Position numbers and translations under genes: made by a program | The notes under the pieces: model-generated | The model's input: the letters and a program-made list of their open reading frames with translations, nothing else | The model's database searches: none | Told to the model about the DNA's origin: nothing | Part shown: piece by piece, positions 7,894 to 8,346 of the stretch | Layout of the letters: each line of letters opens with the position of its first letter | How positions within the stretch are numbered: position 1 is the stretch's first letter | Assembly (NCBI RefSeq): GCF_024700885.2 | Contig: NZ_CP117016.1 | Source: Escherichia coli | GTDB lineage: Bacteria > Pseudomonadota > Gammaproteobacteria > Enterobacterales > Enterobacteriaceae | Reading direction: 5' to 3' (one strand) | DNA: 64,000 nucleotides

Positions 7894-7947
7894 GTTAAAT
7901 CTCCAGATAGTCGCAGCACCCGTTGCGCCGCATATCTGGTCATTCTA

Positions 7948-8012
7948 TTACCTAAAAAACCACATATGGATAGACAACCCATAAATACGAACAGATATTA
8001 CCTTTCAGGTAA
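7948..8012. promoter_or_regulatory. divergent control region: TTACC half-site + AACCACATATGG motif (7948-7971) and full operator TTACC-TTTCA-GGTAA (7998-8012)
   Basis: Same palindrome family as in the cI/cro intergenic region. Confidence 0.5.
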
Positions 8013-8049
8013 TTCGCAAAACGTGCTGGATAGCAAACAAATTATTTGG

Positions 8050-8069
8050 TACTGTATAAATATACAGTT
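8050..8069. promoter_or_regulatory. LexA (SOS) box TACTGTATAAATATACAGTT
   Basis: CTGT-N8-ACAG with AT-rich spacer, overlapping a TATAAAT -10-like hexamer, 20 nt upstream of the ATG at 8089. Confidence 0.65.
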
Positions 8070-8088
8070 ATTGCATGGAGAAGATAAG

Positions 8089-8346
8089 ATGCAGCAGTAT
8101 CACTATCCACTGGAAGACGGATTTACCGAAAGGATTCACACGCCGGGAGGCGTCAGGTCACTGGTGGATGGATCGCACTTGATGAAATTACTCCGGGATC
8201 TCGATAAGGATGGATTTAATGTCGATGGCCCACTTGCCGAACTGACTGCACTGATTAACTACGTCACCAGCTCACAGATGTCTATGCAGGATCTGCAAAC
8301 ACATCTCGACTATTGTGCCGAACAATTACGAAAACAAACTACATAA
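8089..8346 (+). CDS. small LexA-box-preceded protein (85 aa), function unknown; candidate antirepressor or SOS-induced moron
   Basis: GGAG Shine-Dalgarno 9 nt upstream; start chosen at internal Met of ORF 7966-8346. Confidence 0.55.
   Translation: MQQYHYPLEDGFTERIHTPGGVRSLVDGSHLMKLLRDLDKDGFNVDGPLAELTALINYVTSSQMSMQDLQTHLDYCAEQLRKQTT

Follow-up and report, generated by a model that had tools for sequence, protein, structure and literature searches.

A predicted SOS-controlled antirepressor gene, ant, in an Escherichia coli Uetakevirus prophage

The ant gene and its surroundings

The DNA analysed here, referred to as the window, is a 64-kb stretch identical to sequence of E. coli MLI114 (NZ_CP117013.1), a strain from human stool in Mali. 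At the 3' end of guaA it carries a prophage of about 39.0 kb (approximately 1539-40571), a member of the epsilon15/phiV10 group (genus Uetakevirus) that seems to be complete from int through the lysis genes. The published attP/attB core, ATTGAGTGGGAATGATT (PMC9782041), is intact at 40555-40571, and a copy matching at 16 of 17 positions is found at 1539-1555; the guaA-proximal core reads AATCATTCCCACTCAAT and the distal core AATCACTCCCACTCAAT. The late genes of the prophage are on the minus strand. A small gene, ant, is placed on the plus strand, flanked by the last injection/virion genes on one side and by the tailspike gene on the other, an arrangement shared with SPC32H, epsilon15 and phiV10. 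The features of the locus are collected in Table 1, together with the repressor gene rep and the repressor's probable operators.

Table 1. Features of the ant locus, the repressor gene and the probable operators in the window
Feature	Position	Strand	Description and basis
Tailspike gene, 1024 aa	4819-7893	-	epsilon15/phiV10-type N-terminus
Operator TTACC-TTTCA-GGTAA	7998-8012	.	ant-tailspike intergenic region; probable Rep site
Probable ant promoter	8027-8055	+	-35-like TGGATA (8027-8032), 17-nt spacer, extended -10 TGgTACTGT (8047-8055)
LexA (SOS) box	8050-8069	.	Consensus match, uniqueness and conservation; LexA binding predicted
Shine-Dalgarno sequence GGAGAAG	8077-8083	+	Read from the sequence; GGAG at 8077-8080
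ant, 85-aa antirepressor, orthologue of SPC32H Ant	8089-8346	+	Homology; PGAP NL414_RS07700, 'hypothetical protein'
G+C-rich hairpin AGGCCGC-GAAA-GCGGCCT	8352-8369	.	Terminator-like, T-run on the minus strand; terminator scan
Two operators	34563-34577 (one mismatch), 34611-34625	.	Between rep and a divergent 76-aa gene
rep, 194-aa prophage repressor, non-cleavable type	34681-35265	+	5D50/5D4Z homology, Pfam
Two operators, 62 bp apart	35323-35399	.	Downstream of rep, before the recombination-gene operon
All operator positions	7998-8012, 25233-25247, 28444-28476, 32218-32294, 34563-34625, 35323-35399, 40407-40421	.	Motif search

The 85-aa ORF with a good Shine-Dalgarno sequence that had been proposed at this position was confirmed, and the GGAG is present in all 11 genomes of the alignment described below, with a 2-nt offset in the Klebsiella phages. 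In a phmmer search the product aligned over residues 2-85 of 85 with chain E of PDB 5D50, named 'Anti-repressor protein' (E 3e-47). It is about 86-87% identical to the Ant protein of SPC32H (86.9% by tblastn against ant in KC911856), and the homologue is annotated as 'ant: anti-repressor protein' in the GenBank entries of both SPC32H and SPC32N. Ant also matches PHROG 450 (E 4e-47), a PHROG listed as function unknown, and the C-terminal end of PHROG 1760, 'anti-repressor', matches Ant residues 28-75. The family comprises 292 clusters, and all taxon-labelled clusters but one are from Enterobacterales. The original prediction of a candidate LexA-repressed antirepressor is thus supported by full-length homology to Ant, as well as by a Rep homologue lacking an S24 domain and a LexA box kept across the family, both of which are treated below.

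The Pfam and NCBIfam searches gave no family covering Ant, the only Pfam match being a weak and irrelevant one to DUF724, and neither a P22-type antirepressor domain nor a Bro-N domain was found by Pfam. No second Ant-like sequence is present within the 64-kb window, so Ant is the prophage's only candidate SOS sensor. The ORF had also been considered as a DinI-like SOS modulator or an unrelated SOS-induced moron, an accessory gene with no role in induction. Such a gene could look much like ant, which is small, lies on the opposite strand in the late region, has its own promoter and terminator and falls in no Pfam or NCBIfam family. Yet Pfam gave no DinI match even at E<=10 and no other useful match, the full-length, high-identity similarity is to a protein that was crystallised with a phage repressor, and ant is a constant, syntenic part of the genomes of this genus and not variable cargo. 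The homology to Ant rules out an unrelated moron, and the probability that the ORF is an accessory gene of this kind is next to negligible.

Gene callers in several databases lengthen the ant ORF upstream to 126-127 aa. The 126-aa ORF starting from the ATG at 7966 (7966-8346, plus strand) was rejected as a gene-calling artefact because the extension crosses the LexA box and poorly conserved, indel-bearing upstream DNA.

The hairpin downstream of ant sits between this gene and the convergent upstream gene of the late strand, and folds with -20.7 kcal/mol (z -3.75). The same hairpin is found 3' of ant in SPC32H, epsilon15 and BUCT554, and the epsilon15 record describes it as a rho-independent terminator. 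An Rfam search of positions 7000-9500 returned no family near threshold. A perfect 12-bp palindrome, GTGACATGTCAC, occurs at 8370-8381 and at 28555-28566, with a third copy at 23182 (one mismatch), against 0.17 expected. The first copy abuts the hairpin and is likewise kept 3' of ant in SPC32H, epsilon15 and BUCT554; the second is found where the late operon begins, about 40 nt ahead of a terminator-like hairpin that immediately precedes terS. A late-gene regulator or an antitermination factor could bind the palindrome.

The LexA box and the ant promoter

The site upstream of ant reads TACTGTATAAATATACAGTT and matches the E. coli SOS-box consensus, TACTGTATATATATACAGTA, at 18 of 20 positions, both mismatches being outside the core. 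When the window was searched with the consensus 20-mer and up to three mismatches were allowed, this was the single site in 64 kb (two mismatches), and 0 of 100 shuffles gave a match. The near-consensus LexA box that had been read here therefore holds in position, sequence and uniqueness. The looser pattern CTGT-N8-ACAG matched three times in the window against 0.86 expected; the other two matches have G+C-rich spacers and are most likely due to chance. Between the end of the box and the ATG of ant there are 19 nt. Further properties of an SOS operator found at this site are the A+T-rich spacer, the TA/TA flanks and the position over the predicted promoter.

Conservation was assessed in an alignment of the ant-tailspike intergenic region from 11 genomes, with E. 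coli, Salmonella, Enterobacter and Klebsiella as hosts. Each of the nine E. coli, Salmonella and Enterobacter phages has both the CTGT and the ACAG half-site, in a fixed register before the ribosome-binding site, whereas the left half-site is imperfect in the Klebsiella phages (ATGT-N8-ACAG). The 8-nt spacer varies, with at least six different spacers across the 11 genomes. A search of viral contigs for distant Ant relatives returned only E. coli loci of 96-100% identity, and these were used for counting box variants. The box stands 18-20 nt before the ATG in 74 of the 77 near-identical E. coli loci and occurs in six sequence variants; in one of the 77, a rearrangement deletes its left half.

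Over 38,689 bp, exactly two positions distinguish phage SPC32N from phage SPC32H. One of the differences changes ACAG to AAAG at the homologous LexA box and the other affects codon 5 of the tailspike gene. The box of the present prophage aligns column for column with that of SPC32H, the site altered in SPC32N, and has the spacer ATAAATAT where SPC32H has ATGTTTAT. According to Kim and Ryu in 2013, the SPC32N box mutation reportedly leads to constitutive Ant synthesis and a lytic phenotype. The SPC32H/epsilon15 box is nearly identical to the annotated LexA site of phage 186 p95, TACTGTATGTTTATACAGTA.

A different explanation would be that CTGT-N8-ACAG is a promoter-associated palindrome unused by LexA and that ant is under other control, for example by Rep through the site at 7998-8012, and a conserved Rep-type operator is indeed present in the same ant-tailspike intergenic region. 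The quality of the box argues against this, as no site matching the SOS consensus at 18 of 20 positions is expected by chance. The conservation is also of the LexA type, since CTGT and ACAG do not vary among the E. coli, Salmonella and Enterobacter phages and the spacer is free, and both the essential identity of the SPC32H/epsilon15 box with the 186 p95 site and the location of one of just two SPC32H/SPC32N differences in the ACAG half-site point the same way. Control by a factor other than LexA is accordingly rated as highly improbable, and LexA is predicted to bind 8050-8069 in this E. coli variant.

The probable ant promoter, TGGATA-17-TACTGT, has as its -10 element the left arm of the LexA box, TACTGT (8050-8055), preceded by TG. 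By a relaxed hexamer count it was the sole plus-strand pair in 7990-8090 with at least 7 of 12 matches, A2 and T6; a strict promoter scan reported none that covers the box. All 11 aligned genomes share the CTGGA block and the TG that immediately precedes the -10 element. The same arrangement is annotated for 186 p95, in which the left arm of the LexA box doubles as the -10 TACTGT, again with TG in front of it. The exact promoter and the overlap of its -10 element with the box are putative, and LexA would cover the -10 element whichever hexamer serves. An overlap of the box with a -10-like element had been predicted earlier. This part stood with TACTGT as the candidate, but the TATAAAT originally named, in the box spacer, was rejected as a conserved -10 element because the spacer differs among relatives.

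The repressor and its probable operators

Rep is similar to chain A of PDB 5D50 (E 4e-42) and to 5D4Z (E 4e-20, residues 89-190), the C-terminal part that was crystallised alone. It is 42% identical to SPC32H Rep over 196 aligned positions and 100% identical to the phiV10 repressor. Pfam recognises two HTH-like regions, HTH_3 at residues 106-147 and a weaker one at 21-67, in agreement with the repressor with two HTH regions and no S24 motifs that had been described before. Since the Pfam matches are to HTH only and Peptidase_S24 is not among them, the earlier conclusion that this repressor is non-cleavable stands. Kim et al. are said to have reported in 2016 that the C-terminal part of Rep (5D4Z) is the region bound by Ant. 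Ant is predicted to bind the phiV10-type Rep of this prophage as well; because Rep is only 42% identical to its crystallised counterpart while Ant is about 87% identical, a kept interface is an assumption. The repressors of ZX5 and phiV10 are the same in sequence, and overexpression of the repressor blocks lytic growth (PMC9782041).

The motif TTACC-N5-GGTAA, which had been noticed as an operator beside ant, is real and belongs to a larger set. The window contains eight perfect copies, including the one at 7998-8012, and 12 copies with at most one mismatch against 1.0 expected; all eight perfect copies are inside the prophage. By the PGAP gene calls the perfect copies are intergenic, with the exception of one pair inside the start of terS, which is probably over-extended. 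Two sites precede rep and two follow it, two lie between the replication genes and the next operon, two before terS, and one each before the portal operon, before int and at 7998-8012. Several of the operator pairs are spaced 62 bp apart. The arrangement at 34563-34625 parallels SPC32H sites at 34390, 34407 and 34437, and that at 35323-35399 parallels SPC32H sites at 33528, 33604 and 33666. In SPC32H, all ten perfect sites fall in intergenic DNA, which makes up 6.8% of the genome, and in the epsilon15 record a homologous 17-mer is annotated as 'protein_bind: repressor, lysogeny'.

The presence of the sites at nearly every operon start of the prophage and on both sides of rep suggests that TTACC-N5-GGTAA is the Rep operator, and Rep is its probable binder. 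Given this set of sites, Rep would act at the late-gene and int promoters too. The copy at 7998-8012 precedes the LexA box by 38 bp, and 10 of the 11 aligned genomes retain it with a variable centre; in phiV10 its right arm is GGTGA. Its position beside the ant promoter and the tailspike gene suggests that Rep may also control this divergent region.

On this basis two extensions can be put forward, tentatively, as possibilities of some substance rather than as expectations: the ant and tailspike promoters may be under Rep as well as LexA, and/or one Ant may inactivate heteroimmune Reps in trans. With dual control, Ant would relieve the repression of its own region, a positive-feedback latch. 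As for action in trans, Ant is 60-100% conserved across the Uetakeviruses whereas the Reps are only about 42% identical, and the operator half-sites are the same, so that one Ant could act on heteroimmune relatives. The induction of co-resident prophages would then be coupled, and the locus is found in about 10% of complete E. coli genomes. We know of no published description of dual Rep/LexA control or of trans action for this system.

The proposed switch and related systems

The ORF at 8089-8346 is very probably ant, the SOS-sensing arm of the lysis-lysogeny switch of a Uetakevirus prophage. In the lysogen, host LexA would occupy the box and ant would be silent, because the box contains the -10 element of the putative ant promoter. 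Upon DNA damage RecA would be activated and LexA would cleave itself. The ant gene would then be transcribed and the 85-aa Ant would bind Rep, which, having no S24 autoprotease domain, would not respond to RecA on its own. As with the SPC32H orthologue, a tetramer of Ant would capture two Rep dimers and break up the DNA-binding Rep tetramer. Rep would leave the TTACC-N5-GGTAA operators and the lytic genes would be switched on. The observations behind this proposal are the orthology of both proteins to the crystallised pair, a box that is near consensus, unique in the window and conserved, a Rep without S24, the family and positions of the operators, and the difference between SPC32H and SPC32N; no result of this analysis contradicts a LexA-Ant-Rep switch.

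Control of a non-cleavable Rep by a LexA-controlled Ant is already known for this phage genus from 2013 and 2016, including a structure of the complex (Kim and Ryu 2013, J Virol 87:11775; Kim et al. 2016, PNAS 113:E2480). In its account of Salmonella prophages, PMC7380047, citing Kim and Ryu 2013, states that SOS-induced antirepressors inactivate the lytic repressor in several of them: LexA cleaves itself, the antirepressor is made and the repressor is inactivated by protein-protein contact. The account of SPC32H in PMC9638917 describes a Rep that binds DNA as a tetramer and a tetrameric Ant that binds two Rep dimers and breaks this tetramer. As far as these two accounts extend (PMC9638917, PMC7380047), binding of Ant to Rep, release of Rep and SOS-dependent expression are known for the SPC32H proteins only. 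The present prophage resembles SPC32H in both proteins of the complex (PDB 5D50, Rep part 5D4Z), with identities of about 86-87% for Ant and 42% for Rep, in the position and orientation of ant, the position of the box before the ATG, the TTACC-N5-GGTAA sites flanking rep and the genus Uetakevirus. On the other hand, its host is E. coli, its Rep is of the much diverged phiV10 type, its tailspike and accessory genes are unlike those of SPC32H, and it is known from sequence, with ant annotated as 'hypothetical protein'.

The divergence of Rep raises the question whether a true SOS-controlled Ant could be without effect on its own phiV10-type Rep, being vestigial or acting mainly in trans on the repressors of other prophages, as Gifsy antirepressors do. 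Apart from the 42% identity of Rep to the crystallised Rep, against about 87% for Ant, this possibility draws on a second protein, carried by ZX5 and in truncated form by phiV10, in which an Ant-like C-terminal domain is fused to Bro-N. Its overexpression in ZX5 shifts the phage towards lysis (PMC9782041), and another antirepressor could thus serve those phages. The ZX5 protein (ORF4, 'anti-repressor') has 231 aa, and its C-terminal 75 aa are 41% identical to Ant (E 3e-15). It differs from Ant by the N-terminal Bro-N domain, and its gene is preceded by a TTACC-N5-GGTAA site and no LexA box. The gene lies just downstream of ant (4074-4769 of the ZX5 locus, L010; gp23 at 3571-4155 of the phiV10 locus, L003), and the phiV10 copy retains only the first part of the Ant-like domain.

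In the 64-kb window, however, the Bro-N antirepressor gene is absent, and Ant is left as the sole candidate SOS sensor of the prophage. The 35 phage records with Ant and the 37 with Rep are essentially the same set of Uetakevirus genomes, from four host genera. Of 77 close E. coli relatives, 74 retain Ant, the box and the ribosome-binding site, and the similarity of Rep spans the C-terminal part represented by 5D4Z. An Ant without effect on its own Rep is for these reasons considered very improbable, and the LexA-Ant-Rep switch remains the preferred reading.

Tum of phage 186 is likewise a LexA-repressed antirepressor that inactivates a non-cleavable repressor without cutting it. The proteins have no detectable sequence similarity, BLASTP of Ant against Tum giving no alignment at E<=100; Tum has 146 aa, its record names a DinI-type protein, and its gene closes the early region of a P2-like myovirus. 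The original prediction had drawn an analogy with induction of the Tum or Gifsy type. The logic is indeed like that of Tum, but kinship did not hold up, and Ant belongs to the separate family of SPC32H Ant. The antirepressors of Gifsy-1 and Gifsy-3 (GfoA, GfhA) and Fels-2 Tum are also LexA-controlled and act on repressors without autocleavage (PMC3121763, Lemire et al. 2011). They too are encoded away from the immunity region, and action in trans between prophages is known for them. These are phages of other types, siphoviruses and myoviruses, and the likeness lies in the regulatory logic.

The position of ant recalls the immI region (ant, arc, mnt) of P22, another short-tailed temperate phage with an antirepressor between the injection-protein and tailspike genes, although both the protein and its control are different. 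P22 Ant is a protein of about 300 aa under the control of Mnt and Arc, not of LexA. In P22 ant mutants the SOS response still induces the prophage, since C2 is cleaved.

Of 5,426 complete E. coli genomes, 543 carry the ant locus. In all 12 of the records listed its two genes are labelled 'hypothetical protein', and several of these 12 are from O157, O26 and O103 strains. The same label is given to ant in phiV10, TL-2011b, ZX5 and related phage records. The lack of a Pfam or NCBIfam model for Ant accounts for the label 'hypothetical protein' given by PGAP and in most phage records. When the antirepressor of the phiV10-like phage ZX5 was sought in a study of 2022, the Bro-N protein was the only one tested and the only antirepressor named, and the text mentions neither LexA nor SPC32H (PMC9782041). 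Recognition of ant would explain how phiV10-like prophages sense DNA damage. With the system already known, the gap that is left is the annotation of its E. coli counterpart; there is little new biology in this, and the practical value is in annotating ant in E. coli and phage records.

Two neighbouring genes on the tailspike side have features of their own. The tailspike is unlike those of phiV10 and SPC32H, which indicates that the receptor-binding module has been swapped, and it carries a C-terminal Peptidase_S74 'chaperone of endosialidase' domain at residues 872-933. The adjacent ORF at 3644-4768 (plus strand) encodes an acyltransferase with a hexapeptide-repeat domain and NeuD/WcaF-like matches, and occurs in 10 of 5,426 complete E. 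coli genomes. Its 3' end (4419-4760) consists of 42.8 copies of a perfect 8-bp tandem repeat, GCACAGCA. Arrays in the other strains with the gene have 16, 22, 50 or 52 copies, EC0026B has none, and the reading frame after the array differs among strains. Because the 8-bp unit is not a multiple of three, slippage would switch the C-terminal tail of the acyltransferase, and the gene could be a phase- or length-variable surface-modification gene.
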